The position numbers and the translations under genes were made by a program. Source: Chitinispirillaceae bacterium (GTDB taxonomy: Bacteria; Fibrobacterota; Chitinivibrionia; Chitinivibrionales; Chitinispirillaceae). Taken from it: a DNA stretch of 64,000 bases. Below the pieces are notes generated by a model. The model saw only the letters and a program-made list of their open reading frames with translations. It had not been told where the DNA came from and made no database searches. Each line of letters begins with the position of its first letter. Positions within the stretch are counted from its first letter, which is position 1. Below are positions 29,417 to 60,502 of the stretch, one piece after another. The stretch is taken from contig JAFGIN010000044.1 in the NCBI GenBank assembly GCA_016929595.1, positions 14,269-78,268 on the forward strand. Reading direction: 5' to 3'.

Positions 29417-30496
29417 ATGAAGAAAAAGAAGCGACTATTGTGGGATTTCCGTTTATATTCGACCACTTATGCAAAAAGGGGTGTTGGTACTTATTGTACT
29501 GCTCTTTGCAAACAATTATTTCCGCTACTCGAAGATTTCGACATCTATATCTGGGGCAACGTTAATAATGCACCAGAATTTCTCAGAAATGCACCGGTAC
29601 ACTGGATACCATATGATTCAACCTCATGGAAGAAGGATCTTTTCAGAATTCCCCTTCTGATTTACCGATTTAAGATCAGTATTTTTCATTACTGGATACA
29701 TCTGGGCCCCCTGGACAAATGTGGAACCGGCCTTTTCCACCCCTGCAGAACGATTGCGACAGTGTATGATCTTGGTGTTGAGTTGTGGGATCTGCCCCAT
29801 TCAAATATGATCAGGAAAAGGAAATTCTGGACTATTCAGAAAATTCTTTCAAAATCAATCAATACAATATGCGCTATTTCTTCTCACACAAAGAACGATT
29901 ACATTAAGCTGTTTTCACGAAAAGAGACATCTATTCAGATCATATATATGCCGCACGACCAGCCCCATTTCTATAAAAGAAATCTCGTTTCCCCCTATTT
30001 CCTGTTCCTTCGTGGCAGTGAACATAAAAATGAGAAGAATATTGTTGCTGCATTTCTTAAATTTCATGAAAAACACCCCTCTTACTCACTGATCCTGCTA
30101 GGTGAGAACGCAAGTGCTCATGATACTTCATTTTATACAAAGGAAAAGAACATTATCACCGAGCCATCCATGGATTATTATCATGATTATCTCTGTCATG
30201 CAACGGCTCTTCTTTTCTGTTCGTTTCAGGAAGGGTTCGGCATACCTCCGATTGAGGGAATGGCTGAAGGGTGTCCGCTGATAGTCTCCGATATTCCCCC
30301 TCTTCGGGAGACATGCGAAGACTCTGCGTTGTTTGTCGACCCGAATAATATTTGTCAAATTGAAGAAGCTATGATTGCATCAATTGAAAATAATACAAGC
30401 TGGTCGAAGAGATCATTTTCTGCAGGAAAAAGGTATCGCAGTAATTCATCAGAAAGTGCCCCGCATCTTTTGCAATGTTATAAGATGCTGACATAA
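29417..30496 (+). CDS. Glycosyltransferase family 1 (GT4-like).
   Basis: EGFGIPPIEGMAEGCPLIVSDIPPLRE matches the GT1 EX7E region. Confidence 0.8.
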   Translation: MKKKKRLLWDFRLYSTTYAKRGVGTYCTALCKQLFPLLEDFDIYIWGNVNNAPEFLRNAPVHWIPYDSTSWKKDLFRIPLLIYRFKISIFHYWIHLGPLDKCGTGLFHPCRTIATVYDLGVELWDLPHSNMIRKRKFWTIQKILSKSINTICAISSHTKNDYIKLFSRKETSIQIIYMPHDQPHFYKRNLVSPYFLFLRGSEHKNEKNIVAAFLKFHEKHPSYSLILLGENASAHDTSFYTKEKNIITEPSMDYYHDYLCHATALLFCSFQEGFGIPPIEGMAEGCPLIVSDIPPLRETCEDSALFVDPNNICQIEEAMIASIENNTSWSKRSFSAGKRYRSNSSESAPHLLQCYKMLT

Positions 30497-32229
30497 TGGA
30501 ACTGATATCAATTGTCATTCCAACTCATAACCGTTCGGCACAATTGGCTGCTTGTATTAATTCAATACTTTCGCAAGAAAACGCTCCTCCACCTCTGATT
30601 ATTGTTGTTGATGACGGTTCAATTGAAGTGCACGCCCGCTCTAACAGTGAATATTGTAAAAAAAATAATCTCATCTATATCTTTCTGCCGCAGTCAGTGG
30701 GTCTGGCAGCGGCAAGAAACCGCGGTATAGAAAGCTCAGACTCACATTGGATTGTATTTCTTGATGATAATGTCATTGTCGGGCAATCGTGGTTCCAACG
30801 AATTTCTGTACTACTTTCCACCTGCCCATCATCTCTGGCTGCAGTGGAAGTAAGAGTTGAACCATCCGATCAGATGAAGAACCTTTCAGGCGAAACATTT
30901 TTATCCTGCCACTTTGCTTGCCGGCGGGATCTACTGCTTGTTGAAAAGGGGTTTGACGAGCATTTCAAAGATCCCCATTGTATAGATCATGAACTTGCAG
31001 CTCGTCTGCTCGGTCATGGAGAGATCTTTTTTGCTGATGATATACATGTCACTCAACAGCAACGATCGTTTAGTCGCCTTAAATACCTTTTCTCAATCCG
31101 CAAAAAAATAAATATAGAGCTCCAGTCTGAATTTCGATTCTTCTCAAGGCACCCTGACCGTTATCATGCATTCAGAAAAAAAAGAACATTTCCGGGTACC
31201 GTTATATCACGTTGCTTATTCCCTATGATCCTTGAGCTCAGACGCAGGCCATTAAAACAAATAACTGAAAATATTCCCGATTGTATCCTGTTATGTATCA
31301 CAATCCTGTTCGAGCAGGTTTTTACCGTTTTCTGGGCAGCAAAACACCTATCACTTTTTTTCAACCCTCTCAGATCTTTTTTACACAATTATATTGAAGG
31401 CGACAGGACTCTGGCACTCTGGAAGATTACGGGTTCAGATCTGAAACCATTTACAATGAAAAGATGTTATATAAATGCAGCCACATTCCCGTTTTTTCGC
31501 CGTCCTGTTTACAATGCATACCATACACATAAAAAAATATCTTCAGGATCTCAACACAATGCATGTCAGATATTTGTTCGTATCGATGATCTTTTTTTTG
31601 ATGATACGGCAGCGATTGAACTCTTTTCAACCGTCATAAAAAAATTAAATATATCAGTAATGACAGCTGTTCGGGGAAATGATATTCTTAATGAAGAATA
31701 CCATCCTCTGCTTGAGAGACTTAAAGACTCGGGAATTTTTATTGGAATACATGGGTTTGTTCATGAAGGGACCTTTGGACCATTTGACAGTGAACTACTA
31801 CAAATGAAATACGGATCATTTGAAGCACAGATCTGTCTGGTTATCAGAACTCTGCATATATGGAAGCAAAAACATTCCATTCTTGTTCCGCCATTTAACG
31901 CTATCAACAGTTTGCAGATTGTACGCTGGTCAAAACTCTGCAGCATCATTTGCGGAGGCCCGGAAACAGCCCGATTTACCGGACAGGTGTATGGACCTGT
32001 TGCATTATCAGATGGAGGCTGGTATTTTCCTTCAGTACATCCGTTTTACGGAAATGCAGATGTCATGTTAAAAAATGGTGTTCCATCCATGATCGAAAAT
32101 CTCAAAGGTCCACTCTGTTTAACGATGCATTTTACGCAGGAAAGAAAAGATGGTTTTCGTTCCTTTACAAACCTGCTTGAGTGTATGCATCCACAAATTC
32201 ACTGTTGGGAAAAAACTAAAAACTGGTGA
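30496..32229 (+). CDS. Family-2 glycosyltransferase fused to a C-terminal polysaccharide-deacetylase-like (DUF2334-type) domain.
   Basis: N-terminal ISIVIPTHNRSAQLAACINSIL...VVDDGS. The C-terminal region (RIDDLFF...GIHGFVHE) resembles predicted deacetylase folds. Confidence 0.6.
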   Translation: MELISIVIPTHNRSAQLAACINSILSQENAPPPLIIVVDDGSIEVHARSNSEYCKKNNLIYIFLPQSVGLAAARNRGIESSDSHWIVFLDDNVIVGQSWFQRISVLLSTCPSSLAAVEVRVEPSDQMKNLSGETFLSCHFACRRDLLLVEKGFDEHFKDPHCIDHELAARLLGHGEIFFADDIHVTQQQRSFSRLKYLFSIRKKINIELQSEFRFFSRHPDRYHAFRKKRTFPGTVISRCLFPMILELRRRPLKQITENIPDCILLCITILFEQVFTVFWAAKHLSLFFNPLRSFLHNYIEGDRTLALWKITGSDLKPFTMKRCYINAATFPFFRRPVYNAYHTHKKISSGSQHNACQIFVRIDDLFFDDTAAIELFSTVIKKLNISVMTAVRGNDILNEEYHPLLERLKDSGIFIGIHGFVHEGTFGPFDSELLQMKYGSFEAQICLVIRTLHIWKQKHSILVPPFNAINSLQIVRWSKLCSIICGGPETARFTGQVYGPVALSDGGWYFPSVHPFYGNADVMLKNGVPSMIENLKGPLCLTMHFTQERKDGFRSFTNLLECMHPQIHCWEKTKNW

Positions 32230-40454: not shown

Positions 40455-41291
40455 ATGAGGATATTTATGAGTGAAATTTATTCCTATACCAACTACCGTT
40501 TATTTCTTAAAGATTTTTTTACTCTGAAAAAACAGGAAAAACCGCATTTTTCTTTTCAGATATTCGCGAATAAGGCCGGTTTCAAGGCACGTGATCACAT
40601 AATGCGGGTAATGAACGGACAGAGCAATCTCTCCTATGAAGGAAGTCTCAAACTTGCAAAGGCTATGGATCTCATAGAAAAGGAGAGTGAATATTTTACT
40701 AACCTGGTTCTTTTCAATCAGGCGAAGACCCACGATGAACAGTTATTCTATTATAATAAATTATCCCTTACATGCAAAGCAACACGCAAACAGAAACTTC
40801 GTGAAGAACAATTTGAATACTTTTCTGAATGGTACTATTCAGCATTGCGTTCATTCCTGCCGCTTTTTAATTTTAATAATAACTTTGCGATGATTGGAAA
40901 GTTTCTTGATCCGCCCGTCAGTGCACAGCAGGTCCGAAAAGCAATTGACCTGCTCACCGGGCTTGGATTGTTAAATGTTGATGAAAGTGGAAATTACAGG
41001 GTTCCATCATCTTCACTGACTGCAGGTGATGAAGTCGCTTCAGTGGCAATCAACAGCTTTCATCGCCAGAGTCTTGAACTGGCAATCCGTTCAATAAGTA
41101 AAACAGCATCAGTCGAGCGTGATATCTCCGGGGTAACGATGAGTATATCTCAAAAAGGATTTGAGAAAATTAAAAGTGAGATTCAGGCATTCAGAAAAAA
41201 AATTATCTCTATTGCGGAGAGTGATTCGGAAGAAGACCGGGTGGTCCAGTTTAACATGCAGCTGTTCCCTTTAACAAACAAAAAAAAATGA
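40455..41291 (+). CDS. Hypothetical cytoplasmic protein. Its N-terminal pattern is reminiscent of the Fibrobacter-type paralogous family (TIGR02147-like); this is an unverified recollection.
   Basis: It begins YTNYRLFLKDFFTLKKQEKPHFSFQIFANKAGF. A perfect 9+9 bp palindrome lies 55 bp upstream. Confidence 0.4.
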   Translation: MRIFMSEIYSYTNYRLFLKDFFTLKKQEKPHFSFQIFANKAGFKARDHIMRVMNGQSNLSYEGSLKLAKAMDLIEKESEYFTNLVLFNQAKTHDEQLFYYNKLSLTCKATRKQKLREEQFEYFSEWYYSALRSFLPLFNFNNNFAMIGKFLDPPVSAQQVRKAIDLLTGLGLLNVDESGNYRVPSSSLTAGDEVASVAINSFHRQSLELAIRSISKTASVERDISGVTMSISQKGFEKIKSEIQAFRKKIISIAESDSEEDRVVQFNMQLFPLTNKKK

Positions 41292-42259
41292 TGAAATTTC
41301 TCTCTTCAATCATCACCATCATTATTCTAATTCTCTCCTGCGACAGTGGCGATTACGCCGGTCCGACAACAGAACAGGGGAACCCGCAGATTATAGCTCT
41401 GGTTCTGGATTCCTTAAACAACCCTGTCCCAAACATTGCTGCAACCTTACTTGTAATACCACAGGCTGATACCTCGAATTGTTATGACAGTCTGATACCA
41501 CCCGGTAATGCCATTAAAGTTAACACATCAAAAAGTTCTCAGGAAGGTACATGTTTCTTTTCCAATCTTGCAGCAGGATCGTATCGGATCGTTGCAACCG
41601 ACAATGTGCGAAACATGTCAGTAACATCAGAGAATATTATTGTATCTGAAGACAATGATACCTCGATCCATGATACGCTGGTACTTCAGCAATCCGGCAG
41701 AATACAGGGAACAGTTATCCGCAATGTGGCAATGGCCAATCAAAACCTGGAAAACGGCTTTATACAAATAAGAATGCTGGAACTGGACCGTTTTATTGTC
41801 ACCGTGCCATCGGGAAATTATTCTTTTGACAGCCTTCCCTATGGCAGATACACTCTGTACTATTATGCAACGGATTATTATGTAGAACACGTGGAAAATA
41901 TCACTATTGTTCCGGGAAAAACAACAATTATCGACACTGTTGTACTGAAACGGTATAAAGATCAGCTTCTGGTTCCTCCAACTGATTTTCAGGCTCAGTA
42001 TGACACCGCAAACGGAGTAGTCATCCTTTCCTGGTCACCAGTTACCTTTCAGAACTTCAAGCACTATAAAATTGAACGACATTGTGATGAACAGGAAAAT
42101 CTGGAAAGAGCCTGGAAAACAACAGCTACCAGTTTTACGGATACTATAAGCACCGTGCCAGACAAGACTATTTTTTCCTATGTGGTATATACAGTTGATG
42201 CAACCTACGTCCGAAGCTCGAAAAATGCAGGCCCAATTCAGGTACAGATCAGCAGGTAG
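41288..42259 (+). CDS. Lipoprotein with CarboxypepD_reg-like and Fn3-like beta-sandwich domains.
   Basis: Lipobox LILSC, repeated GSYRIVATDN and GRYTLYYYATDYY motifs, and the Fn3-like stretch VVILSWSPVTFQNFKHYKIER. Confidence 0.55.
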   Translation: MMKFLSSIITIIILILSCDSGDYAGPTTEQGNPQIIALVLDSLNNPVPNIAATLLVIPQADTSNCYDSLIPPGNAIKVNTSKSSQEGTCFFSNLAAGSYRIVATDNVRNMSVTSENIIVSEDNDTSIHDTLVLQQSGRIQGTVIRNVAMANQNLENGFIQIRMLELDRFIVTVPSGNYSFDSLPYGRYTLYYYATDYYVEHVENITIVPGKTTIIDTVVLKRYKDQLLVPPTDFQAQYDTANGVVILSWSPVTFQNFKHYKIERHCDEQENLERAWKTTATSFTDTISTVPDKTIFSYVVYTVDATYVRSSKNAGPIQVQISR

Positions 42260-42762: not shown

Positions 42763-42922
42763 ATAGCATCCTGAACATTTTAAAATGTAAGCACCATTCT
42801 TATCTGATACCGCATAGTAGCAGCTACTCGTCCATATAATTCAGGTAAATATACGATATAAACAACAAAAAAGGGTGAGATTTGATTCTCACCCGATGTT
42901 CAGGATATACTGCCACTTTTGT

Positions 42923-43510
42923 TTAAAAAACTTTTTTATGCAATGTTTTTTTTCTGAATGATACTACAGACAGAGCCAGTAAACCACTGCTCAGAAGCAT
43001 GACCATTGATGCTTCAGGGACATTGGCAGTTCCATTCTTTGTTGTAAAATCAATAAAACCACCATTGATATCACCAAACAAACCATCTTTCAACGCAATT
43101 TCACTAATGCCTTCAGCGATACCTTTAAAAGTAACAGTTGCCAGATTGAATGCATCTGATTGAAAACTCAAATCGTCTATGAGTGAAAGGTTTGCAATAT
43201 TTACAATTCCAGGAAGAGCATTGTCACTTACATCCACAGCATCACCAGATACAAGATTACCGAGCTGATCAGTAAGTTTATAGCTGTAAAATTCAAGCAG
43301 TGAATTGTCATATGACAGATTAACATCAAAAGTACTCAGATCTTCATTTTCTACCAGACCCGAAATCATAATATTCACATCAAACATTGATCCGATAGCA
43401 ACATTCTGCCTCTCCGGACTTACACTGATCAAAGCCGGAAATGCCTGACTGATTATCAATGCAAGCCCTGCTATAACGCCTTTAATTCCGCACGATTTAA
43501 TTTTTGTCAT
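42923..43510 (-). CDS. Small surface protein carrying a cohesin-like domain and a PEP-CTERM-like C-terminal sorting tail.
   Basis: Signal peptide, then cohesin-like motifs (VAIGSMFDVNIMISGL...FDVNLSYDNSLLEF). The C-terminus is VPEAS, then a hydrophobic helix (MVMLLSSGLLALSVVSF), then RKK. Confidence 0.5.
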   Translation of the reverse strand: MTKIKSCGIKGVIAGLALIISQAFPALISVSPERQNVAIGSMFDVNIMISGLVENEDLSTFDVNLSYDNSLLEFYSYKLTDQLGNLVSGDAVDVSDNALPGIVNIANLSLIDDLSFQSDAFNLATVTFKGIAEGISEIALKDGLFGDINGGFIDFTTKNGTANVPEASMVMLLSSGLLALSVVSFRKKTLHKKVF

Positions 43511-43652
43511 GATCTTCCTTTCAATAAATTTTTTGTTTACTTTTTGTTATTCCGGTAATAGTATATTACTCACATTTTGTTCATCATTGCCATCAGGTCG
43601 ATTCCTGTACAGCCACTTCTCCAAACCATCCTGAACATTTTTTCTTGAAATC

Positions 43653-43794
43653 ATTAATTACCTGAGCCAATTGCAAAAGTCGAACTCGCCCCCAAAATCC
43701 CCCCAGGGGACTTTTAGAAAAAACAATGTTTTACAAGTCCCCCATCGGGGGGAGTCAGGGGCGTATTTGCAATTACCTGAGCAATGTAATAATT
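43653..43794. repeat. Composite palindromic intergenic element. It has two short G/C hairpins (tccccccagggga, tcccccatcgggggga), an AT-rich near-palindromic centre, and flanking direct repeats aattacctgagc (43656 and 43771) with inverted aattgcaaa/tttgcaatt. Read on the minus strand, the first G/C hairpin is followed by TTTT, making it a likely rho-independent terminator for the dockerin-phosphoesterase gene.
   Basis: Direct inspection of 43653-43794. The element lies between the stop of the minus-strand gene 43807-45549 and the start of the minus-strand gene ending at 43510. Confidence 0.5.
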
Positions 43795-43806
43795 TCGACC
43801 CCGACA

Positions 43807-45549
43807 TTATCTATTCTTTATAAGAACAAGTTTTCTTGCATCGAGGACCGTGATTTTCCCATCATTGTCAAGGTCAGCAGATGGTTTGACATCGGCAGGT
43901 TTATTTTTAAGAGAAGTAATTACTGCAATGTCAGCATTATCAACATCGCCATCACCATCCTGATCACCATCACTACTGGATTTAACAGCGAATTCACCCC
44001 CGTGGTTAACAACAGCCCACACAATCTTCTTTTCCGTGTCGATACCGTAAGTCCCGATACCAAAGGATGATTTGCAGGGACCAACAACGAATTTCGGTTC
44101 ACTGCTGAAATTCAGACTGGTAGCACCAACCCAGTTACCATTTCCATCTTTGGTGACAAGTGACAGCGGACCGGATAATTCACCTTTATATGAGAGTGAA
44201 AGTGTGTAAATGTCGCTTTCATCACTGCCAAGATTATTCGCCATACCCCATAATGTGAGTACATCACTTTTAAGATCACTTGCAGCATCACTCTTTGATT
44301 GCCATCCAGTAGTAATATTCTGTACGAGACTTCTGCCATCATAAAGAGCTGGAGAGATAATGTTCTCACCGTTTATAATCGACGCTTTCGTATTTTCGGA
44401 TCCGCTTAATTTACAGGTGTCTGAAACAACGGTCAAAGTATTACCGGCAGTTACAACGTATTCTTTACCATTCAGACTATATCCGAACGTTTCTCTTTTC
44501 TGGAAAGAAAGAACAGGTGTGACGTTGAGATTGCAATCAACCTCAGATCCCCATTCACCGCCGCACCCATTCAGAGATGAATAATAATCACAGGTAATCC
44601 GGGCACCGTCGACCGTAAAGATATAATAACCGACGGTGTACAATTCCTGCGCAAGCGGCAGTTCACGGGGTGAATTACCGGAATAACGCTGATCAGCAGA
44701 TGGAATTACAGGTGTATAAAACTTGTAACTGTTTGAAGCACCTATCAATTGCTTGATTGTATAATTCCTGTCCGGACTATAGACAATGGAACGATGGTGC
44801 ATATGATCATGGCCACCGAAATAATACCGGACACCATTATCGCTGAGTGCTTTGAAAAATTGATTTTGAGCCGAGATGTTACTTGACATATTGGAACCAA
44901 AGAGGACATCAAAATGATTTTGACCTATAATATTTTTATGGGCCATAACAAAGGCATGGGTATTTGCATCCCTGGAACCAAGAACATCATTAACCCACCC
45001 GATCTGATCGATCATGTTGTTATTAGTCAATCCGGAGTTATCTTTTCTTGTAAACTGATCAAGTAACACGAATCGAACATTATTGTAGTCAAACGAGTAA
45101 CTGAGACATTCAAGATTCATAGATGCGCTCTGGAAATTACTTGCGCCGAAAGTATTTATGTAACCACAAGCCTGTGGGAAAGAAGTGGAGAAGTAAATTG
45201 CAGCACTCGAGGAGGATTCATGGTTTCCCCGGAGTGGAAAAAATCCAATACCTGCATCGATGAGTTCCTGCGCTCCCTGAGCGCGTGTATCAAAAGCCGG
45301 TGAGCTATACCTGTCAACAAGATCCCCTACCTGCAATACCATTTTCACATCATGCCTGATAAATTCAGCGTTAAGCTGCCTGATAATTCCCGCTGCAACT
45401 GTGTTGGGATTTTCCCCATCAATATTACTTTTCCACTGTGTATCGCTCATCAGACCGAATTTCCATGATTCCGCAGATACTACCGCTGTTGCCATAAACA
45501 ATGCCCCGATACCCAGGGCGACCGCTTTGGCTTTCCTGAATTTGACCAT
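43807..45549 (-). CDS. Secreted calcineurin-like metallophosphoesterase with a C-terminal type-I dockerin module.
   Basis: Metallophosphoesterase motifs (GDLVDRYS, LRGNHES, GGHDHMHHRS). Two dockerin Ca-binding repeats (DGDGDVDNADIAVI and DLDNDGKITVLDARKLVLI). Confidence 0.7.
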   Translation of the reverse strand: MVKFRKAKAVALGIGALFMATAVVSAESWKFGLMSDTQWKSNIDGENPNTVAAGIIRQLNAEFIRHDVKMVLQVGDLVDRYSSPAFDTRAQGAQELIDAGIGFFPLRGNHESSSSAAIYFSTSFPQACGYINTFGASNFQSASMNLECLSYSFDYNNVRFVLLDQFTRKDNSGLTNNNMIDQIGWVNDVLGSRDANTHAFVMAHKNIIGQNHFDVLFGSNMSSNISAQNQFFKALSDNGVRYYFGGHDHMHHRSIVYSPDRNYTIKQLIGASNSYKFYTPVIPSADQRYSGNSPRELPLAQELYTVGYYIFTVDGARITCDYYSSLNGCGGEWGSEVDCNLNVTPVLSFQKRETFGYSLNGKEYVVTAGNTLTVVSDTCKLSGSENTKASIINGENIISPALYDGRSLVQNITTGWQSKSDAASDLKSDVLTLWGMANNLGSDESDIYTLSLSYKGELSGPLSLVTKDGNGNWVGATSLNFSSEPKFVVGPCKSSFGIGTYGIDTEKKIVWAVVNHGGEFAVKSSSDGDQDGDGDVDNADIAVITSLKNKPADVKPSADLDNDGKITVLDARKLVLIKNR

Positions 45550-45834: not shown

Positions 45835-47709
45835 ATGGTTCACGGATTCCTTAAACAGATGACCTCTTCAGAATCGAATTCCAAATTCCAGATCCCAGCA
45901 TTCTTCATTGGTGGTTTTTTTCTTCTCAACTCATATATAGCAGGTTTTTTCTTTCCTGAAAAAGAAGTATCAGAAATTTCAGCGATACTTTCATCACTTA
46001 TCTTCGGACTACCTCTTGTCTATAATGCATTAAAAGATCTCTTTACAGGCCAGGTAGAGATGAATGAGCTTGCAGCCCTTAGTTTCACAGCATCGTTCTG
46101 TACAGCCAATTATAAAGCGGCTTCAGTTATCGCGTTTTTCATGATTATCTCCCACCTTATCGAACAGAGAACAGAATGTAATGCACGAAAAAATATTGAA
46201 GCACTTATGAGACTGACACCATCAAAAGCTCAGGTACTTATTGACGGTACCATTATTGAACGTGATGCGAATACAATCAAAAACGGTGATATTGTCCAGG
46301 TACTCCCTGGCGACCGTATCCCCGGTGACGGTAAAGTCATTGAAGGAATCAGTACTATTGACGAATCTGCAATAACCGGAGAATCGTTACCTGTTGAAAA
46401 AGGCGGAGATGCTTCAGTGTATAGTGGTACTGTCAATCTTTCCGGTCGTCTGGTTATCAAAATCACTTCTGGTTCGGGCGAAACAATATTGTCGAAGATT
46501 AAAGACCTGATCAAACAGGCCGAGAAAAGCCGGACCCCGGTTATGAAAATCATAAATCGCTACGCATCCTGGTATACACCATCCATCCTGATGCTTTCCG
46601 GTATAGTTCTCTTTTTTACAAGAGATATTCAACGGGCAATATCAATGCTGATATTATCATGCCCCTGTACAGTAATACTATCCGGTCCTGTAGCACTTGT
46701 AACAGCACTTGGCGCAGCTGCAAGATCAGGAGTCATTTTCAGAGATGTTTCGATTCTTGAGATTGTTCAAAAAGTCACTACCATTATTTTCGATAAAACA
46801 GGCACACTTACTTATGGAAATCTTCTTGTATCCACAATAAAAGTATTTAATGAAACCAATTCACACACGCTTCTTTACTATGCCGGATCTCTTGAACAAT
46901 ACTCCCATCACCCCGCTGCAAAAGCGATAATAAAAGAGTGTATACGGTGTAATATTACCCTGTCCGGATCTGCTGACTTCTGTGAAACTGCAGGAATGGG
47001 AGTCCGTGGTACAGTTGAGGGAAAATGTATCTCTGTCGGACGTATGGAATGGATTCAAAAGCAATGTACGCCGGGAACAATATCTGAAATTTCTCATGAT
47101 AGTTATGGGACCAGTCTATATATTCTTGTAAATGGAGAACATTGCGGTACAATTCTTTTGTCAGATGTTGTTAAATCTGATGCCCATACAACAATCGAAT
47201 CGCTTCGAAAACTCCCGATAGCAAACATCCTCATGTTTACCGGTGATAAAGCTTTTGTTGCAGAACATATCGCACGGCAATTAGGGTGCGCATTTGAAGC
47301 TGAAATGCTTCCCGATCAAAAGATGATGAGAATCAGGGATGCAAAATCATCTGGTGAAATTGTAGCGATGATCGGTGATGGTGTCAATGATGCGCCGGCA
47401 GTGGCTGCGGGTGATGTATCTATTGCAATGGGAGGAATCGGTAGTGAAGTAGCTATCCATTCAGCTTCGATAGTCCTCATGAATGATAAGCTTGACCGTA
47501 TCCCCTTCATTTTCCGACTTTCCAGAGTGACCGTTTCAATCATTCGCCAGAACATCATGTTCAGTATATTATTTATCATTGTAATGATGGCCTCAAGCGC
47601 ATCAGGAGTTATATCACCAGTCCTTGCGGCAATTCTTCACTCATTAAGCACCGTCCTCGTTGTTCTCAATTCTGCTCGCCTTCTCAGAGAAAGTGAACAA
47701 ACAGTATGA
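45835..47709 (+). CDS. P1B-type heavy-metal P-type ATPase with a probable Cu(I)-type TM signature and no N-terminal HMA metal-binding domain.
   Basis: DKTGTLT, GDGVNDAPA, a CPC motif in TM6 (SCPCTVILSGP), and the TM8 MxxSS-type motif (MMASSASG...VLNSARLL). Confidence 0.8.
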   Translation: MVHGFLKQMTSSESNSKFQIPAFFIGGFFLLNSYIAGFFFPEKEVSEISAILSSLIFGLPLVYNALKDLFTGQVEMNELAALSFTASFCTANYKAASVIAFFMIISHLIEQRTECNARKNIEALMRLTPSKAQVLIDGTIIERDANTIKNGDIVQVLPGDRIPGDGKVIEGISTIDESAITGESLPVEKGGDASVYSGTVNLSGRLVIKITSGSGETILSKIKDLIKQAEKSRTPVMKIINRYASWYTPSILMLSGIVLFFTRDIQRAISMLILSCPCTVILSGPVALVTALGAAARSGVIFRDVSILEIVQKVTTIIFDKTGTLTYGNLLVSTIKVFNETNSHTLLYYAGSLEQYSHHPAAKAIIKECIRCNITLSGSADFCETAGMGVRGTVEGKCISVGRMEWIQKQCTPGTISEISHDSYGTSLYILVNGEHCGTILLSDVVKSDAHTTIESLRKLPIANILMFTGDKAFVAEHIARQLGCAFEAEMLPDQKMMRIRDAKSSGEIVAMIGDGVNDAPAVAAGDVSIAMGGIGSEVAIHSASIVLMNDKLDRIPFIFRLSRVTVSIIRQNIMFSILFIIVMMASSASGVISPVLAAILHSLSTVLVVLNSARLLRESEQTV

Positions 47710-49658
47710 AACCAGAAAACATGAAAAAATTTGAGTCCATCACTATGGCAGGTCTGTTTCTCCAGTTACTATTTGCAGCTATATCAACAACTATTACACT
47801 TTTCTGGAACTATCCTGCACTACAACATCTGATGTGGCACTCGATAGCACCGCTTGGAATATGGGTTGTTAATCTGATCACTGTCAGTAGCAGAAATAGT
47901 GATACCTGCACAGCTGGTAATAGCTTTAAATCACTTATTATTAAACTATTGTATCGTTATGGTTCTACCGTTTCCGGCCTGTTTATGATTACTTTTTTTC
48001 TACTGAGTTTTACAAACATACTACCGTCTTTAAAACCCGATACCAGTGTTGTAAAAGGCATTCCAGCTCATCTTCCACTTATACTCTTTTCAGTTGTATC
48101 CTTTTCCGGTATTCTTATTTCCATTTACTACATAAAGATTTCAGCACTTGAACCCTGGAAGCACCTCCAGGGCGTCGCTCAGTATCTCGCCTCAACAACA
48201 CTCTTTTTTTTGATTCTTTTGATCAATTCATTGTTTAAATATTCTGGTTTCATATCTATTGACAATCACATTACCGTATTTCTCAAATCAATAAATGCCA
48301 TTCTGGCAGCAGAATTACTTATTATCTTTCTATCCTCCTTTTTTAAACCACCGTCATCTGCAAACAGGCAACGCTCCTTTTACCATTCTTATATATTGGA
48401 AGTCGTGCTGTACCCACAAAAGACCACCCAAACAATAAGACTGTTATTGATAAATTTATCAGGGTTCGATATAACAGCTCACGCATTTTCAAAACAGATA
48501 CAATCTGTTATTTTACCCTTGTTAGCAGCATCAGGTATATTCATGTTTCTTCTCAGTTCGTTTGTTATTATCCGGCCGGAGGAGAAAGGGATACTGTTTA
48601 CTCTTGGTAGACCAGACCCACACACCCTTGCTCCTGGTATTCATCTCAAACCCCCATTTCCTTTTGGGAAAGTAAGAAAATTCGATGTATTTCTTATACG
48701 GCAAATGCATGTCGGTTCCCACAAGCCACAGATTATGGGAGGAACAGTGTTTAAAGAGGGTGTCCCTCTTCTCTGGACGACCAACCATGGCTTGAGCAAC
48801 GACGAACATCTTATTGTTGCATCACCCAGAAAACTTATGCAAAATGCAGTTGAAAGTGGTGGAAAGGTCGATGTATCAAATAATAAAACCCCCTCAGTTT
48901 CACTTGCAGGTGCAGATATCGTTCTGGAATATACAATTAATAATATAACAGATTTTTCCATGGCAGGCATAGATACAGAAAAGATGCTTTACTTATTCTC
49001 GGAAGCATCAGTATCGCACCATTTGCTCTCATTCGATATTGACACACTATTCTCTGATGCTCGTATTGGAATGGCTCAGGAGCTTAAGGCCAGGCTCCAG
49101 TCAAAAATCAGTAATCACCATTTGGGTATTAAGATACTCAATGTCAGTATAACAGCAGTTCATCCGCCAACTGAGATCGCTGATGTTTTCGAAGAAAATG
49201 TTACAGCAATGCAGGAACGTGAGACTAAATTTCAACAGGCACAGCAAAGTTCTCTACGCACACAAGTCGAAGCTGCAGGCTCGGTTGCAGCATTTAAAGA
49301 ACTTGCCGATCAAATTAACATTGAAGAACGTTTTTCCTCAGCTGAGAACATACAATCAGAACTGATGATTTTGAAATGTGGTGGTACTATTTCCACAATA
49401 ATCTCAGATGCAACAGGATATCGCTGGAGCAGAGAAAATATTGAAGGTGGAAAGGCAGAAAAATTCACTGAAGAACTCAAACTATTTGAAATTTCAAAAA
49501 ACATTTATTCTCACGAACGATATTTTTCAATTCTTGAAGAGGCGTTAGCATCGAAAAATAAGATCCTCGTTTCACAACGACACAAAAATCTTATTGTTGA
49601 ACTTGGATCAACAAACAGACTGATACCAGATAATATACTGAGAGGTTCGAACCAATAA
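47706..49658 (+). CDS. Large membrane protein comprising an N-terminal polytopic domain and an SPFH/band-7 domain.
   Basis: ATGA overlap with the ATPase stop. About 7 TM helices, then IIRPEEKGILFTLGRPDPHTLAPGIHLKPPFPFGKVRKFDV, which is an HflK/C-type SPFH core. Confidence 0.65.
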   Translation: MKPENMKKFESITMAGLFLQLLFAAISTTITLFWNYPALQHLMWHSIAPLGIWVVNLITVSSRNSDTCTAGNSFKSLIIKLLYRYGSTVSGLFMITFFLLSFTNILPSLKPDTSVVKGIPAHLPLILFSVVSFSGILISIYYIKISALEPWKHLQGVAQYLASTTLFFLILLINSLFKYSGFISIDNHITVFLKSINAILAAELLIIFLSSFFKPPSSANRQRSFYHSYILEVVLYPQKTTQTIRLLLINLSGFDITAHAFSKQIQSVILPLLAASGIFMFLLSSFVIIRPEEKGILFTLGRPDPHTLAPGIHLKPPFPFGKVRKFDVFLIRQMHVGSHKPQIMGGTVFKEGVPLLWTTNHGLSNDEHLIVASPRKLMQNAVESGGKVDVSNNKTPSVSLAGADIVLEYTINNITDFSMAGIDTEKMLYLFSEASVSHHLLSFDIDTLFSDARIGMAQELKARLQSKISNHHLGIKILNVSITAVHPPTEIADVFEENVTAMQERETKFQQAQQSSLRTQVEAAGSVAAFKELADQINIEERFSSAENIQSELMILKCGGTISTIISDATGYRWSRENIEGGKAEKFTEELKLFEISKNIYSHERYFSILEEALASKNKILVSQRHKNLIVELGSTNRLIPDNILRGSNQ

Positions 49659-49694
49659 TCCAGACCGCTCTTACTTAACTTAAGGGACATACTT

Positions 49695-50602
49695 ATGAAA
49701 ATGAAACATTTGAGTGCATTTGCAGCTGGCTGCATACTTCTACTACTATTCATTGCATACCTTACAACCTATATTGTCAATTATGATGAGATTGCCGTTG
49801 TAACTACCTTTGGAGCTGCAGATTCGCGTTCTGTAAAAAACATCGATGGTAATCAGTCTGGTATTTTTTTCCGGTTACCGTGGCCTTTTCAGGATATCAT
49901 TCGTTTCGACAGGCGGATCTCTGTAATTGAAGACCGCCTCGAACAGCAGGAGACGATAAGCAGGTTGTTATACTAAAAGCATTTCTCACCTGGAAAATCA
50001 AGGATCCATTAAGCTTTTTCCGGATGTTCCGTACAACCAGCCGGGCAACAGCATTCCTTCTGGAACGCCTTCGGGCTTCAAAAGCTGAAATCGGAGCTTT
50101 TACTTTCAATGATTTGACCAATGTTAATCCCGATCTGGTCAGACTTGATGATGTTAACAATGCGCTTTTAAACAGGATTCAAAGTGAACTTGAAACTTAT
50201 GAAACTGGTATTGAAGTGTTGTCAGTTGGTATCAACAGGATTTTGCTTCCAGAAAATATTACACGGTCGGTTTTTCAAAGAATGAAACAAACCCGGCAGC
50301 GTCAGGCACAAAACGCCCGATCTGAGGGTAATGCTATTGCTCAGAGTATCATTGCAAAAACAGATAGTGATAAGAAGCGAATAATGGCCTTTACTGAAAG
50401 GATGTCCCAACGATTAAGGGCTGAGGGAGATGCAGCTGCGGCGCGATACTATAAGGAATATTCAAAAAGTGCAGAGTTTGCAATTTTTTTAAGAAAACTC
50501 GATGCATTCAAATTAAGTTTACGTGAGAATACCACATTTATTCTTGATACGAAATCCGAGCCCTTCGATCTATTGGAGAACACAAAACAGCAGGAAAAAT
50601 GA
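49695..50602 (+). pseudogene. HflC-like SPFH-domain gene interrupted by a frameshift (ORF 49695-49976 continues in another frame as 50024-50602; the frame switch maps to about 49930-49975).
   Basis: The N-terminal TM plus IAVVTTFGA...LPWPFQDIIRFDRR is in frame 0. QVVILKAFLTWKIKDP and the rest of the SPFH/coiled-coil domain are in the +2 frame, and that reading frame stays open from 49931. Confidence 0.55.
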
Positions 50603-51843
50603 GCTATCAGATGACAAATTCCACTATGAGACCTGAAACAACCAGTCCCGCTACTCCTGCGCATTCAGATAGAACAGATCAGGCACAATCGCCTCATTCT
50701 TCTATTTTTCTATTTGTAATCCGCGCAGGCTTTAGAATTCTTACCGTACTCTTCTTTGTTCTTGGCTTTCTCTTTCTTTTCAGCAATACCTACCGGGTAT
50801 CTGAGGGTATGGTTGCTATTCACAGCCGACTGGGAAAACTGTCCGGCATTGAATCTTCAGTTAAAGCACCTGGTGGCCCCTATTGGGCGTTCCCCTTTCC
50901 AGCAGACAAGATAGTAAAGTTGCCGACAGCGATACAAAAGGTAATGATCAACCGGGCATTTTTGTTCGAGGATTCCTCTGCAAATCTTGAAAAAGCAAAA
51001 TTAAGAGCAGCATCATTTCAGCCTGGTGTACATGGTTCACTCATAACAGGTGATAAGAATATTGTTCAGGGCACATGGATTGTACATTATCGAATTGATT
51101 TCTCCTCTGATAATTTTCAAAGCCGGACCAATGTCATTCATTTCATCAAAAAAATTGGCACGATACAAAAATCTGCCGAAATAGTAAAAGTTTTCTCCGA
51201 ACAGGCGATTATAAGGGCGGTTGGAGCGATAGCCGTTTCCGATTTTATCAGCGGTAAAATTGATCATGATGCCGTAAAGACAAGAATCCAGCAAAAAATT
51301 GACACCCTTGAACTTGGTGTTAGAATAGTCAGTCTCTCCGCTTCCCGATATGGCCCACCAGCTGTGCTTGAAAGTGATTTTCAGGCTGCTACCCAGGCTG
51401 AAAGTGAAAAGGCACTCCAGATTGAAAAAGCAATCAGGTACCGTACTACCACACTCAATGAAGTTGCGGGAGAGCAGTGGGAAAATTTACTCAACGAAAT
51501 TACGATGTATGAGCAGGCAATAACATCTAATAATCCTGAACAACAAAAGAGCACCCATCAAACAATAGAAAACATTCTAAGCTCTTCAACAATTGGTGGT
51601 TATGTCGCCACACAACTGGAGAGAGCAAGGACTGAAAAAACAAAAACAATCGAAAAAGCACGCTCCTCTGTATCGCGTTTCACTGAACTGTATGATGCGT
51701 ACCATCGAGACCCGCATATTTTGAAGAATCAGCTTTTCCAGGATGTTCTAGAAGAGGTGTTTTCGGGTCCGTTTGTTAAAGTGTACTGGCTTCCACCTGG
51801 ACAGCAGATTTATCTTGGTGCTCTTGATAAAACGCAGGAATAA
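50599..51843 (+). CDS. HflK-like SPFH/band-7 membrane protein.
   Basis: The N-terminal TM (ILTVLFFVLGFLFLF), the SPFH core (RVSEGMVAIHSRLGKLSGIE...YWAFPFPADKIVKLP), and a coiled-coil C-terminus. Confidence 0.7.
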   Translation: MSYQMTNSTMRPETTSPATPAHSDRTDQAQSPHSSIFLFVIRAGFRILTVLFFVLGFLFLFSNTYRVSEGMVAIHSRLGKLSGIESSVKAPGGPYWAFPFPADKIVKLPTAIQKVMINRAFLFEDSSANLEKAKLRAASFQPGVHGSLITGDKNIVQGTWIVHYRIDFSSDNFQSRTNVIHFIKKIGTIQKSAEIVKVFSEQAIIRAVGAIAVSDFISGKIDHDAVKTRIQQKIDTLELGVRIVSLSASRYGPPAVLESDFQAATQAESEKALQIEKAIRYRTTTLNEVAGEQWENLLNEITMYEQAITSNNPEQQKSTHQTIENILSSSTIGGYVATQLERARTEKTKTIEKARSSVSRFTELYDAYHRDPHILKNQLFQDVLEEVFSGPFVKVYWLPPGQQIYLGALDKTQE

Positions 51844-54813: not shown

Positions 54814-55620
54814 TCAATGTACCTGAATAGTTACTTTTAATCTTACGAATATGTACTCATTGCACCCTGTTGGAACTTCCGCAGCTACTTTTTTGATACA
54901 GCTGAAACCTTCCTTTTCAACCAGTTCAATCATTTCCTTTTCACTTGCGTACTCATAGGGATAACCACCAACCCAGTCCACTACATTGTAATAGAAATCC
55001 ATCCCACGCATCAGGTTAAGCGGATTTTTCCTGGTTACCAAAATTTTAGCGATGAAAATCACTGGATACATTAGGGCAATTAGTACTTTTTTCATAAATG
55101 ATGGCGATATACAGTAGAGCCATTTGATAAATAACCATGGCTTACTAGTTATGTGTTTATTGTAAATAGCACAGATAAAATAACCATCGTCATTTACCAG
55201 TGATAAGGCATTTTTTAATGCGAGCTTCATGTCTCCTGTATGATGCAATACACCCCAGGAATGAACGATTTCAAATAATTCGTTGCCATTAATTTGAGTT
55301 GTTAGCTGTTGAATTGTTGAAGGGTCAAGTATAGAACCGACGACTACAGGAATATCGCCCTGAATTCCCATAAGTGATGCTGTTTTCTTCAATGCATCAT
55401 AACACTTTGGATTTATATCGTTTCCATACACTTCTGCTCCGGCTTCTTTAGCAAATAATAGTGAAAGTCCCTGACCAAAGCCAATATCAAGGAATCTTTT
55501 ATTTTTCAGTTCTATACCGGTAAATAATTCGTGAAAATCTATTCGTGCTTCCTCGATTTTTTTCCGAGTCAGAGCCCTTTTAGAGAAATCAAGCCAGTTC
55601 TGTCCAAAATCAAACTGCAT
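54814..55620 (-). CDS. Class I SAM-dependent methyltransferase.
   Basis: RFLDIGFGQGLSLLFAKEAGAEVYGNDIN. Confidence 0.7.
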   Translation of the reverse strand: MQFDFGQNWLDFSKRALTRKKIEEARIDFHELFTGIELKNKRFLDIGFGQGLSLLFAKEAGAEVYGNDINPKCYDALKKTASLMGIQGDIPVVVGSILDPSTIQQLTTQINGNELFEIVHSWGVLHHTGDMKLALKNALSLVNDDGYFICAIYNKHITSKPWLFIKWLYCISPSFMKKVLIALMYPVIFIAKILVTRKNPLNLMRGMDFYYNVVDWVGGYPYEYASEKEMIELVEKEGFSCIKKVAAEVPTGCNEYIFVRLKVTIQVH

Positions 55621-56752
55621 TCACATAATCCTTCATTATTGACTTTGCTGAAACAGTCCAGGAATATCGGGTTTGGGCCAGATGACGGGAGTATGAAGCC
55701 ATTGAGCTATACTGCTTAACAGCAATTATTCTTATCATAGATTCACTCAAGCTGTTACTATCCTCCAGATTAAACAGGTACCCATTTTTTTTATCTGTTA
55801 CTAATTCATTATTTCCACCTATATTGCTGGCAATTACAGGTAATCCGCATGCCATTGCTTCCAGTACAGCATTGGGCATTCCCTCATCTAAGGATGGATT
55901 GACAAAGCAGTGTGCCGACTGGTACAGTAAAGGAAGGTCATTTTTAACAGTCCATGATTTCAGAAAAACGGAATTTTTGAGAACTGAAGAAGATTCAATT
56001 TTTTGTATCAAAGTTTCCTTTTCCGGTCCACCACCTGCGAGTATCAGACATGCTTTATTTTCTCTGTTTGCTATTTCAAATTGTGATAAAAGATACAGCA
56101 GATTTTTTTGATTTACAAATCGTCCTACGAACAAAAATGTAAATACCTTTTTGTATTCCTGATTGCAGGGCTTGAAAAAAGTAGTGTCAACTCCATTGGG
56201 AACCATCTCAACAATGCGTTTTATTCTGCCAGCAGTCATATTTGCCAGATCGCAAAGCCGCGTACTATTTGCAATCAACAGTTCAGCTTTTTTCCAAATC
56301 GCTAATGTAAAAGGCATCGTTATCGTATGGAGTAAACCGAGATGTTCAGGAAGAAACCCCGGAACATCTCCGCCTCTTAGGAGCACTATGTAAGGAACAC
56401 GCAATCTGGTGCATAACCTGTGTGCGACTAAACCGCAGGGAATGGAAAAAAATGCAATAGACAAATCATATTTTTGATCTGCAATCAGACTGACAGCTTT
56501 CTTATAAGCCGCAACAACATAGCTGAGCATCTCTACAGGATTGGATTGTTCCATTTTTTTTCGAAGTGACTTTACCCGGTAAACAGTCACATTATCCTGT
56601 TCTACTGAAATTTCATCCAGTCCTGAAAACCAGGTTGTAATAACATCGGTAACAATACCCATTCTCCCCCATTCTCTTGAAAGAAAAAAGGTCGCATTAC
56701 CCGCACCCCCTCCAAGTGGAGGGTATTCATAATTGAGTACTAAAACACGCAT
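55610..56752 (-). CDS. Glycosyltransferase family 1 (GT4-like).
   Basis: The N-terminal MRVLVLNYEYPPLGGGAGN and the C-terminal DEGMPNAVLEAMACGLPVIASNIGGNNELV. Confidence 0.8.
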   Translation of the reverse strand: MRVLVLNYEYPPLGGGAGNATFFLSREWGRMGIVTDVITTWFSGLDEISVEQDNVTVYRVKSLRKKMEQSNPVEMLSYVVAAYKKAVSLIADQKYDLSIAFFSIPCGLVAHRLCTRLRVPYIVLLRGGDVPGFLPEHLGLLHTITMPFTLAIWKKAELLIANSTRLCDLANMTAGRIKRIVEMVPNGVDTTFFKPCNQEYKKVFTFLFVGRFVNQKNLLYLLSQFEIANRENKACLILAGGGPEKETLIQKIESSSVLKNSVFLKSWTVKNDLPLLYQSAHCFVNPSLDEGMPNAVLEAMACGLPVIASNIGGNNELVTDKKNGYLFNLEDSNSLSESMIRIIAVKQYSSMASYSRHLAQTRYSWTVSAKSIMKDYVNAV

Positions 56753-56761
56753 GATTATTCT

Positions 56762-60381: not shown

Positions 60382-60423
60382 TTGCAGTATTTTAAAATAT
60401 AAAGTATAAGATGAATGACAGGC

Positions 60424-60468: not shown

Positions 60469-60502
60469 TTATTTCAGTTGACAAGACTAAGGAAGGGGAC
60501 TT

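Follow-up and report, generated by a model that had tools for sequence, protein, structure and literature searches.

The closest described relatives of the system reported here are single cohesins carried on an envelope anchor, which capture a dockerin-tagged protein: OlpA and OlpC (complexes 3ul4 and 4dh2) and ScaE (2zf9). OlpA and OlpC of Clostridium thermocellum are held by SLH anchors, and ScaE of Ruminococcus flavefaciens by a sortase LPXTG anchor. All three come from Gram-positive Firmicutes and take plant-cell-wall enzymes or scaffoldins as cargo in multi-component cellulosomes. Cohesin–dockerin use outside the cellulosome is a known category, surveyed by Peer et al. in 2009 (as cited in PMC5244752 and PMC8542988); such modules are common and their function is still called unknown (PMC5244752). 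They include the NagJ/NagH toxin-complex modules of Clostridium perfringens (2jh2, 2o4e, 2ozn) and a cohesin of Archaeoglobus fulgidus (2xdh), likewise found outside cellulose degradation. For none of these modules has the form of a PEP-CTERM-tailed adaptor with its gene beside that of its cargo been described, and our literature search found no paper with both "PEP-CTERM" and "dockerin".

PEP-CTERM/exosortase sorting is known from the work of Haft et al. (2006, 2012, as cited in PMC9850573 and PMC5244752) and from PepA of Aquincola. Proteins of this type have an N-terminal signal peptide, a VPEP-like motif with a TM helix and a basic tail, and an association with EPS loci, and they are implicated in exopolysaccharide binding into flocs (PMC9850573). 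In a diderm, cohesins on a diderm-type C-terminal sorting domain have been reported for a scaffoldin-like protein of Ca. Stygibacter (Cloacimonadota), a multi-cohesin protein of 3,755 aa with CBMs, several dockerin enzymes and T9SS (PMC8542988).

Here we analyse a gene pair in a 64-kb stretch of DNA from a member of the Chitinispirillaceae (Fibrobacterota), referred to as the window. Like OlpA, OlpC and ScaE, it combines one cohesin with a (here putative) anchor signal, ScaE (cohesin plus C-terminal sortase signal) being the nearest architectural analogue. Unlike them, it has a diderm host, a PEP-CTERM-type signal, a phosphoesterase as cargo and the form of a self-contained two-gene cassette; compared with the Ca. 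Stygibacter scaffoldin, its cohesin protein has 195 aa and a single cohesin. This recurrent pair looks like an undescribed way to tether secreted proteins to the envelope or the slime matrix.

Organization of the locus

Both open reading frames of the initial annotation are present on the minus strand at its coordinates, and their features are collected in Table 1. The two genes had been described as adjacent. They are indeed neighbours but they do not abut, because the 297 nt between them accommodate a palindromic element of ~150 nt (fold z = -3.7; inverted repeats). Spacers at related loci measure 0-48 nt. A terminator scan revealed no terminator-like site between the phosphoesterase and cohesin genes, and an Rfam search around the locus gave no credible match. 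In this genome the strong hairpin of the spacer could separate the two genes transcriptionally.

Table 1. Features of the phosphoesterase/cohesin locus (positions in the 64-kb window).
Feature	Position	Strand	Basis or remark
Metallophosphoesterase gene, secreted, C-terminal dockerin, 580 aa	43807-45549	-	ORF; Pfam Metallophos 43.8 bits; AF2 pLDDT 90.9; >2,000 homologues
Phosphoesterase predicted signal peptide, aa 1-26, MVKFRKAKAVALGIGALFMATAVVSA/E	45472-45549	-	Sequence reading; low-confidence model helix 2-21
Catalytic domain of calcineurin-like dimetal phosphoesterase type, aa ~29-330	44560-45465	-	Motifs in family alignment; Foldseek
All-beta domain without assigned function, aa ~345-524, WAV.N.GG.FAV at its end	43978-44517	-	Model secondary structure; family conservation
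Dockerin module, aa 525-580	43810-43977	-	Custom dockerin HMM; model; alignment
Dockerin Ca-loop 1, D529-D540	43930-43965	-	
Dockerin Ca-loop 2, D559-D570	43840-43875	-	
Intergenic spacer	43511-43806	-	~150-nt nested palindrome 43647-43796; AGGAAG Shine-Dalgarno-like sequence before cohesin ATG
Cohesin/PEP-CTERM adaptor gene, 195 aa	42923-43510	-	ORF; Pfam Cohesin 27.0 bits, above cutoff
Adaptor predicted signal peptide, aa 1-25	43436-43510	-	
Single type-I-like cohesin domain, aa 26-163	43022-43435	-	
C-terminal sorting signal resembling PEP-CTERM, aa 164-195: VPEAS, hydrophobic helix MVMLLSSGLLALSVVSF, RKKTLHKKVF	42926-43021	-	
Intrinsic-terminator-like hairpin and T-run	42873-42894	-	Directly after cohesin gene

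Other genes were considered as parts of the module and set aside. The flanking P-type ATPase and Band-7 genes are conserved only in two related loci (L002 and L009), and the downstream CxxCxxCC gene lies beyond the terminator-like hairpin, a ThuA gene being found there in L002.

A calcineurin-like phosphoesterase ends in a dockerin

The 580-aa protein matches Pfam Metallophos (PF00149) with 43.8 bits, for a cutoff of 21.5. The motifs D36-T-Q38, G75-D-L-V-D79, G108-N-H-E111 and G246-H-D-H249 are intact, and in the family alignment they occupy columns that are invariant or almost so. The metal-binding motifs that mark the calcineurin-like metallophosphoesterases (PF00149; five in the family definition) are present as D-x-Q, GDxxD, GNHE and GHxH, with Gln replacing His in motif I. 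When the catalytic domain was submitted to Foldseek, purple acid phosphatases, Lmo2642, GpdQ and SMPDL3A were retrieved with E values of 5e-11 to 1e-9. The above-cutoff match and the intact catalytic motifs bear out the calcineurin-like phosphoesterase first proposed. Activity as a dimetal phosphomono- or phosphodiesterase is probable. The all-beta domain that follows is conserved across the family, up to the WAV.N.GG.FAV motif at its end, and gave no separate structural match in Foldseek. The signal peptide is predicted from a basic N-terminus, a hydrophobic core and a VSA motif.

At the C-terminus, Asp-rich loops of 12 residues begin at D529 and at D559, and each of them leads into a helix (538-546 and 568-576 in the AF2 model, block-mean pLDDT 88-95). 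Two such segments, each an EF-hand-like Ca loop and then a helix, are what defines a type I dockerin. Across the dockerin subfamily alignment, the Asp and Gly positions of the loops show no variation, and the second repeat (D-x-D-x-DG-x-IT-x-LDARKL) is far more conserved than the first. Pfam Dockerin_1 (PF00404) scored 17.7 bits on the full protein and 22.7 bits on the isolated tail, both below the cutoff of 22.9, the latter narrowly; 19/19 subfamily tails matched it at E <= 0.1 (best E 3.2e-13). A profile of these tails compared to the PDB retrieved dockerins first, namely 2y3n_B (E 2.2e-10), then 4fl4_A, 3ul4_B and 1ohz_B. A custom dockerin HMM recognised the phosphoesterase tail with an E value of 3e-29, its sole match in the window. 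A homology search with the dockerin profile returned almost exclusively stand-alone or fragmentary dockerins of 44-112 aa and brought no variety of cargo to light. The two Ca loops with their helices and the preference of the tail profile for solved dockerins support the earlier reading of the tail as a dockerin.

The neighbouring gene encodes a cohesin with a PEP-CTERM-like tail

The 195-aa protein had been called cohesin-like, a designation that withstood both HMM and structure searches. It matches Pfam Cohesin (PF00963) with 27.0 bits (cutoff 24.1), and its AlphaFold model (pLDDT 93.6) displays the nine-stranded jelly-roll beta-sandwich of cohesins. The Foldseek top-50 for this model consists of cohesins throughout; OlpA, OlpC and ScaE are all among its structural matches, and the C. 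perfringens and A. fulgidus modules cited above are found among the sequence or structure matches. At the family level, 29/30 PDB matches of the profile are solved cohesins (best E 8.9e-9), and 52/60 aligned members match Pfam Cohesin at E <= 0.01. The family of ~195-aa cohesin/PEP-CTERM proteins comprises 1,738 clusters at 50% identity. It has no NCBIfam model, and the annotation of its members goes no further than "hypothetical protein" or "PEP-CTERM motif".

The tail of the adaptor consists of VPEAS, a helix (169-193 in the AF2 model) and a basic RKK..KK end, so that it reads VPEA and not VPEP, and Pfam PEP-CTERM (PF07589) scores 14.3 bits for a cutoff of 20.7. The 71%-identical orthologue in L002 has VPEP and scores 21.7 bits, above the cutoff, and 43/60 aligned family members match this model at E <= 0.01. 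The tail aligns to the family consensus VPEPxxxxLLxxGLxGLxxxxR, a canonical VPEP, TM and Arg-rich tail arrangement that supports the PEP-CTERM-like signal initially proposed. Moreover, VPE[A/S/P] is kept right before the helix in 11/11 Fibrobacterota orthologues. This retention, in proteins whose cohesin domains are only ~43% identical, argues for a recognised processing site.

The window contains two EPS loci. The best NCBIfam matches of their genes are XrtA/PEP-CTERM-associated families, all below cutoff: TIGR03027 (100 bits, cutoff 180), TIGR03108 (596, cutoff 817), TIGR03007 (122, cutoff 279) and TIGR03018 (133, cutoff 231). Neither NCBIfam/Pfam scans of the membrane and EPS ORFs of the window nor a TM-count screen of all ORFs of the window and of the Fibrobacterota loci detected an exosortase, whether in the 64-kb window, in the ~10 kb that the Logan contig L086 adds on its left side, or in the further Fibrobacterota loci fetched; on the right side, contig L085 contributed no additional sequence. 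A literature search for exosortase or PEP-CTERM in Fibrobacterota found nothing.

Sec export alone delivers proteins to the periplasm only. This fact, the departure of VPEAS from PEP with its sub-cutoff Pfam score, and the failure to detect an exosortase in any sequence available for the organism could indicate that the same cohesin–dockerin pairing operates in the periplasm, the C-terminal helix being a plain inner-membrane anchor used without exosortase and the enzyme residing on the periplasmic side of the cytoplasmic membrane. We regard this as unlikely, given the conserved VPE[A/S/P], the canonical family consensus with its Pfam matches, and the existence of orthologous enzymes that bear a PEP-CTERM tail directly. 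What becomes of PEP-CTERM proteins in general has been worked out only in part (PMC9850573), so that the adaptor may just as well be retained in the matrix or the periplasm as at the cell surface.

Dockerin-tailed phosphoesterases are linked to the cohesin gene in two phyla

The phosphoesterase family provided 79 evaluable loci, 19 dockerin-tailed and 60 without dockerin. A cohesin/PEP-CTERM gene lies immediately downstream on the same strand in 19/19 dockerin-tailed loci, whereas none occurs within +/-10 kb in the other loci (0/60); the Fisher p value of about 1e-18 overstates independence, because the 19 positive loci represent two clades. Chance adjacency is ruled out by these counts. The loci with both dockerin and cohesin belong to Fibrobacterota and to Burkholderiales (Pseudoduganella, Massilia, Methylophilus, Aquabacterium, Roseateles/Paucibacter and Pelomonas). 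One dockerin of the same subtype had no cohesin gene downstream, at a locus situated at a contig edge.

The two genes also diverge together. Distances between enzyme cores correlate with those between cohesins within the two phyla (r = 0.96 and 0.82), as do distances between dockerins and cohesins (r = 0.90 in both), with a Mantel p of about 5e-4. Together, adjacency and co-divergence strengthen the proposal of a dedicated two-component tether, in which the two modules would bind each other.

Strict one-to-one operonic pairing with co-divergence is also typical of chaperone/effector and toxin/immunity pairs. The small cohesin protein might thus be a partner other than an anchor, either a chaperone or escort for secretion or an inhibitor acting until release. 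This is very improbable: a soluble chaperone or inhibitor needs no C-terminal sorting signal, all characterised cohesins that the structure searches retrieved act in docking, and the adaptor family also pairs with unrelated cargo sharing the dockerin alone, as described below.

Tags are interchangeable and the adaptor family has other cargo

The conserved WAV.N.GG.FAV motif closes the core of the phosphoesterase, and homologues differ in what comes next: a dockerin or, in other lineages, a PEP-CTERM tail (AAVPEPETWAMLLAGLGLVG..RRR), an RTX block or no more than a short tail. Those with their own PEP-CTERM (P0039, P0050, P0056, P0089, P0096 and P0100) share the core at 48-55% identity and the same tag point. 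Their sorting signal is direct and covalent, whereas in the window it is split onto the cohesin protein and the enzyme has a dockerin instead. The arrangement also differs from known PEP-CTERM proteins, which are sorted cargo: here the sorted protein would be an adaptor bringing a second protein that is itself untagged for sorting.

Among five other members of the cohesin/PEP-CTERM family that were examined, four have a neighbouring gene with the same dockerin subtype. Two of these genes encode the same phosphoesterase, one a DUF4215 Cys-rich protein and one a beta-helix/Tricorn/PD40 protein of >2,400 aa. The same adaptor family thus occurs with unrelated cargo sharing only the dockerin, which suggests that recognition takes place via the tag and not via the catalytic domain.

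Exactly one dockerin and one cohesin were found in the window. The combination of multi-cohesin scaffoldin with CBM and several dockerin CAZymes that would define a cellulosome is absent from these 64 kb, and the cargo is not a CAZyme, in line with the non-cellulosomal use postulated at the outset. Cohesin and dockerin are nevertheless the hallmark modules of cellulosomes, multi-cohesin relatives of the family exist elsewhere (P0169 and P0223, with five cohesin stretches each), and Cloacimonadota have been inferred to possess a scaffoldin-like system (PMC8542988). Participation in a cellulosome-like multi-enzyme complex degrading chitin or cellulose is conceivable for a Fibrobacterota relative of chitinolytic bacteria. 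We consider it extremely improbable, since the adaptor lacks a CBM and bears just one cohesin, the only dockerin of the window sits on a phosphoesterase, the same cassette occurs in non-cellulolytic Burkholderiales, and the Chitinispirillum genome paper does not mention cohesin, dockerin or cellulosome.

Proposed mechanism

Building on the domain identities, the linkage across phyla, the co-divergence of the genes and the interchangeability of the tags, we propose, with a probability of roughly 0.7, that the pair works as a tethering module of two genes, an adaptor made of a cohesin and a sorting signal retaining the enzyme by its dockerin tag. Both proteins would be exported through Sec, as inferred from their signal peptides. 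In the adaptor, one cohesin would be joined to a C-terminal signal of PEP-CTERM type that serves for sorting and anchoring; the phosphoesterase would present a cognate, Ca-dependent dockerin exactly where orthologues of other lineages have their own PEP-CTERM tail. The cohesin would bind this dockerin, probably with the second repeat as main interface, and the enzyme would be held non-covalently wherever the adaptor ends up. Processing of VPEx by an exosortase would place the enzyme on the cell envelope or in the exopolysaccharide matrix; without such processing, it would sit on the outside of the inner membrane. Products of its reaction would then be released beside the cell and not lost by diffusion.

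A broader interpretation, to which we give slightly less than even odds, is that the ~195-aa cohesin/PEP-CTERM proteins are widespread universal adaptors in diderms, showing any protein with this dockerin subtype (second repeat D-x-D-x-DG-x-ITVLDARKL) via exosortase/EPS sorting. The cassettes would be mobile between phyla as units, and the phosphoesterase pair would be one case of "dock-and-sort", a diderm counterpart of sortase-anchored cohesins.

Significance

The novelty is the PEP-CTERM adaptor family with its conserved cassette, which would be a further form of cohesin–dockerin anchoring and not a cellulosome. With one cohesin, one dockerin and one enzyme, in a cassette conserved in two phyla, the locus offers a simple testable case. 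A compact orthogonal cohesin–dockerin pair from Gram-negatives may also find use in surface display. The finding bears on the destination and the role of PEP-CTERM proteins: here such a protein has an obvious molecular job, the predicted binding of a dockerin, and comes with a reporter in the form of an enzyme. Because the family is large, poorly annotated and without an NCBIfam model, its recognition would improve the annotation of many environmental genomes.

A dockerin-tailed phosphoesterase next to a cohesin protein

The initial annotation placed a dockerin-tagged metallophosphoesterase beside a cohesin-like protein with a PEP-CTERM-like tail, and both open reading frames were confirmed on the same strand. 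The window belongs to a MAG of the Chitinispirillaceae (Fibrobacterota), and NCBI entries from this family are identical to both proteins. The 580-aa protein matches Pfam Metallophos with 43.8 bits (cutoff 21.5) and contains the canonical dimetal motifs D36-T-Q38, G75DLVD79, G108NHE111 and G246HDH249, whose columns are invariant or almost so in a 39-sequence alignment of the family. In its AlphaFold model (pLDDT 90.9), the Foldseek neighbours of the catalytic domain are purple acid phosphatases, Lmo2642, GpdQ and SMPDL3A (E 5e-11 to 1e-9). By sequence, no closely related solved structure was found (top PDB matches 2xmo, E 2e-4, and 2nxf, 7e-4), and no NCBIfam model exists for the protein. It is predicted to be, probably, an active secreted phosphomono- or phosphodiesterase.

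Features of the window and of the two protein models
Feature	Position	Strand	Remark
Phosphoesterase gene	43807-45549	(-)	ORF, 580 aa
Cohesin protein gene	42923-43510	(-)	ORF, 195 aa
Terminator-like hairpin	42873-42894		after cohesin gene
Nested imperfect palindrome	43647-43796		~150 nt, within 297-nt intergenic spacer
P-type ATPase (624 aa), then SPFH/Band-7 genes	45835-51843		divergent from phosphoesterase
TIGR02147 (Fsuc_second, DUF4423) gene and 323-aa protein gene	40455-42259		overlap by stop codon
Exopolysaccharide locus	23301-32229
Exopolysaccharide locus	54814-63766
Phosphoesterase, signal-peptide helix	N-terminus		AlphaFold model
Phosphoesterase, alpha/beta catalytic domain	aa ~29-330		AlphaFold model
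Phosphoesterase, all-beta domain	aa ~345-524		AlphaFold model
Phosphoesterase, two C-terminal helices	aa 538-546, 568-576		AlphaFold model
Cohesin protein, signal helix	aa 6-19		model
Cohesin protein, beta-sandwich	aa 26-164		model
Cohesin protein, C-terminal helix	aa 169-193		model

The final ~56 residues of the enzyme contain two 12-residue Asp-rich loops, DQDGDGDVDNAD and DLDNDGKITVLD, with a helix after each of them. The tail has the architecture claimed for it, and Pfam Dockerin_1 is matched by all 19 aligned subfamily tails (best E 3.2e-13), but the window protein itself falls just below the 22.9-bit cutoff (17.7 bits for the whole protein, 22.7 for the isolated tail). Against the PDB, the tail profile ranks solved dockerins ahead of EF-hand proteins, in the order 2y3n_B (E 2.2e-10), 8x39_A, 4fl4_A, 6kg9_A, 3ul4_B and 1ohz_B. 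The second repeat (D-x-D-x-DG-x-IT-x-LD-x-RKL) is far better conserved than the first, a hint that it may form the main binding face.

In groups other than Fibrobacterota, this dockerin subtype has an additional pair of Cys residues at its C-terminus (e.g. ..LICTLPNCAIAQ and ..MCTCPMCICE; seen in the tail alignment A3 and at loci L087, 2199-4253, and L090, 1-7281). The pair may act as a disulphide clasp and is missing from the window dockerin. Many stand-alone or fragmentary proteins of 44-112 aa (P0274-P0379), from Nitrospirota, KSB1, Planctomycetes and Kapabacteria, consist almost entirely of this subtype, some with a MopE-like Cys-rich N-terminus. No cohesin gene lies downstream of the one seen in context (L095, 159-353), which is at a contig edge.

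The 195-aa protein passes the Pfam Cohesin threshold (27.0 bits, cutoff 24.1). Its model (pLDDT 93.6) retrieved cohesins as all 50 top Foldseek matches, and 29 of 30 PDB matches of the family profile are solved cohesins; its description as cohesin-like is supported. Its tail consists of VPEAS, a hydrophobic helix and RKKTLHKKVF. The helix and the basic end of a PEP-CTERM signal are present, and the C-terminal consensus of 60 aligned family members is canonical (VPEPxxxxLLxxGLxGLxxxxR), but the window tail scores 14.3 bits with Pfam PEP-CTERM, below the 20.7 cutoff. The VPEA of the window is a minority variant in the family; Fibrobacterota orthologues have VPEA, VPES or VPEP. At E <= 0.01, Pfam Cohesin matches 52 and Pfam PEP-CTERM 43 of the 60 aligned members.

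An exhaustive HMMER search recovered 1,738 representative clusters of this family at E <= 1e-3, of which 239 also reach E <= 1e-10; almost all are 180-210 aa long and match end to end. No NCBIfam model covers them, and databases name them 'hypothetical protein' or 'PEP-CTERM motif'. Two relatives, P0169 (977 aa) and P0223 (1,411 aa), have five cohesin stretches each and, judged by sequence, are scaffoldin-like multi-cohesin proteins close to the cohesin protein.

Linkage of the dockerin tail to the cohesin gene

The phosphoesterase family is large (>2,000 homology-search matches). Its core ends in a conserved WAV.N.GG.FAV motif, followed, depending on the lineage, by a dockerin, a PEP-CTERM tail (AAVPEPETWAMLLAGLGLVG..RRR), an RTX block or just a short tail. 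The homologues P0060 and P0072 show ends of the form AVPLPGAAALLL...RR or AVPAPGALLLF...RRR, which resemble a variant sorting signal of the VPLPA type and not PEP-CTERM; this suggests that at least two exosortase subtypes handle the sorting of one phosphoesterase family.

Eighty loci of this family from species-representative genomes were scored with a custom HMM built from the cohesin domain alone. The dockerin locus L013, whose sequence ends 553 nt past the gene, was excluded, leaving 79 evaluable loci. A cohesin/PEP-CTERM gene lies directly downstream, on the same strand, at 19/19 loci with a dockerin tail, and within +/-10 kb at 0/60 without one (Fisher p ~1e-18, a value that overstates independence because the loci cluster phylogenetically in two clades). 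The pairing is all-or-none across two phyla, the linked loci belonging to MAGs of Fibrobacterota and to Burkholderiales (Pseudoduganella, Massilia, Methylophilus, Aquabacterium, Roseateles/Paucibacter and Pelomonas). In six-frame HMM scans of the 64 kb, dockerin and cohesin each gave a single match (E 3e-29 and 1e-49, respectively). The cohesin protein is 30-31% identical to its counterparts at L003 and L004 (pairwise BLASTP). Within each phylum, enzyme-core, dockerin and cohesin distances are strongly correlated (r = 0.82-0.96, Mantel p ~5e-4), indicating that the enzyme and cohesin pair is inherited and diverges jointly.

A terminator-like hairpin was found after the cohesin gene and none between the two genes, which is compatible with a single transcript. 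The spacer palindrome folds strongly (z = -3.7), has no Rfam match and is single-copy in the window and all loci compared; related Fibrobacterota loci have spacers of 0-48 nt without it. It may have arisen as a MITE-like insertion, or it may act as an attenuator.

Gene neighbourhoods and generality of the cassette

The P-type ATPase gene and the first Band-7 gene were rejected as part of the module: they are conserved beside the cassette in L002 and L009 only, and their presence is probably local synteny. On the other side, a member of the Fibrobacter paralogous family TIGR02147 (293 bits) overlaps a gene whose product has carboxypeptidase-regulatory-like/SpaA-like Ig domains and an N-terminus resembling that of lipoproteins; this pair also occurs in L001, whose DNA coincides with that of the window.

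The neighbours of five further, divergent cohesin/PEP-CTERM family members were inspected. In L088 and L093 the gene directly follows a dockerin-tailed phosphoesterase of the same family; in L087, a 684-aa DUF4215 Cys-rich protein with the same dockerin subtype at its end (...DLDGDGKITVLDARKLSTICTYTNCASN). In L090 it lies after a Big_5/beta-helix/Tricorn/PD40 protein of >2,400 aa ending ...DIDGDGTITVLDARKLMLMCTCPMCICE, and in L092 it adjoins a giant protein whose end lies beyond the contig. The adaptor family, as read from these sequences, is therefore not tied to the phosphoesterase; the feature common to the cargo proteins is the dockerin.

Four-gene cassettes were observed in L003 (9175-13467) and L088 (4157-8738), in the order 268-272-aa PEP-CTERM protein, dockerin phosphoesterase, cohesin/PEP-CTERM adaptor and secreted Kelch beta-propeller (363-396 aa). 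L004 (10001-13489) has the last three genes (Kelch 362 aa), with no upstream PEP-CTERM gene called, and the window cassette has neither the upstream PEP-CTERM protein gene nor the Kelch gene.

A predicted two-gene tether and its destination

The best-supported reading, in which binding is deduced from gene linkage, is a two-gene tether: the cohesin adaptor, bearing a sorting or anchoring signal, would capture the exported dockerin-tagged enzyme, and the pair would be functionally equivalent to orthologues with their own directly attached PEP-CTERM tail. The prevailing view, with partial experimental support, is that exosortases process PEP-CTERM proteins, which then join the extracellular polymeric matrix (PMC9850573); PepA is required for exopolysaccharide binding into flocs, its C-terminal processing being 'to be investigated' (PMC9850573). 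The two exopolysaccharide loci of the window encode an export protein, a Wzc-like chain-length/tyrosine kinase, glycosyltransferases, methyltransferases, a MurJ-type flippase, an asparagine-synthase-type amidotransferase and a TPR-glycosyltransferase fusion. Their best NCBIfam matches are XrtA/PEP-CTERM-associated families, every one below cutoff. No exosortase was found in the window, in ~10 kb past its left end or in the other Fibrobacterota loci, so that a plain inner-membrane anchor, keeping the complex in the periplasm, is a live rival for the role of the tail. Nevertheless, orthologues with just ~43% identity between their cohesin domains retain VPE[A/S/P] ahead of the helix, which argues for a processing site.

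The nearest architectural analogues of the adaptor are the single-cohesin cellulosome anchoring proteins OlpA, OlpC and ScaE, all among the structural matches of its model; OlpA and OlpC are SLH-anchored, and ScaE carries a sortase LPXTG signal. A cellulosome was rejected for the 64-kb window, as scaffoldin, CBM and CAZyme cargo are all absent from it, and the proposed non-cellulosomal context is supported. That category is already known from the C. perfringens NagJ/NagH modules and the A. fulgidus cohesin, and such modules are reportedly covered by the 2009 survey of Peer et al. A scaffoldin combining several cohesins with a T9SS sorting domain was inferred in Cloacimonadota (PMC8542988). In the open-access literature subset, we found no description of a PEP-CTERM-tailed single cohesin encoded beside dockerin cargo and no paper combining PEP-CTERM and dockerin; exosortase and cohesin occurred together once, treated separately.

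The interpretation of the initial annotation is largely right, with cell-surface placement and exosortase processing as predictions, and the comparative data strengthen it considerably. We rate the finding as a probable case of the known cohesin-dockerin anchoring, joined here to a diderm C-terminal sorting signal, in the form of a putatively mobile two-gene cassette that is widespread, uncurated and open to direct testing.
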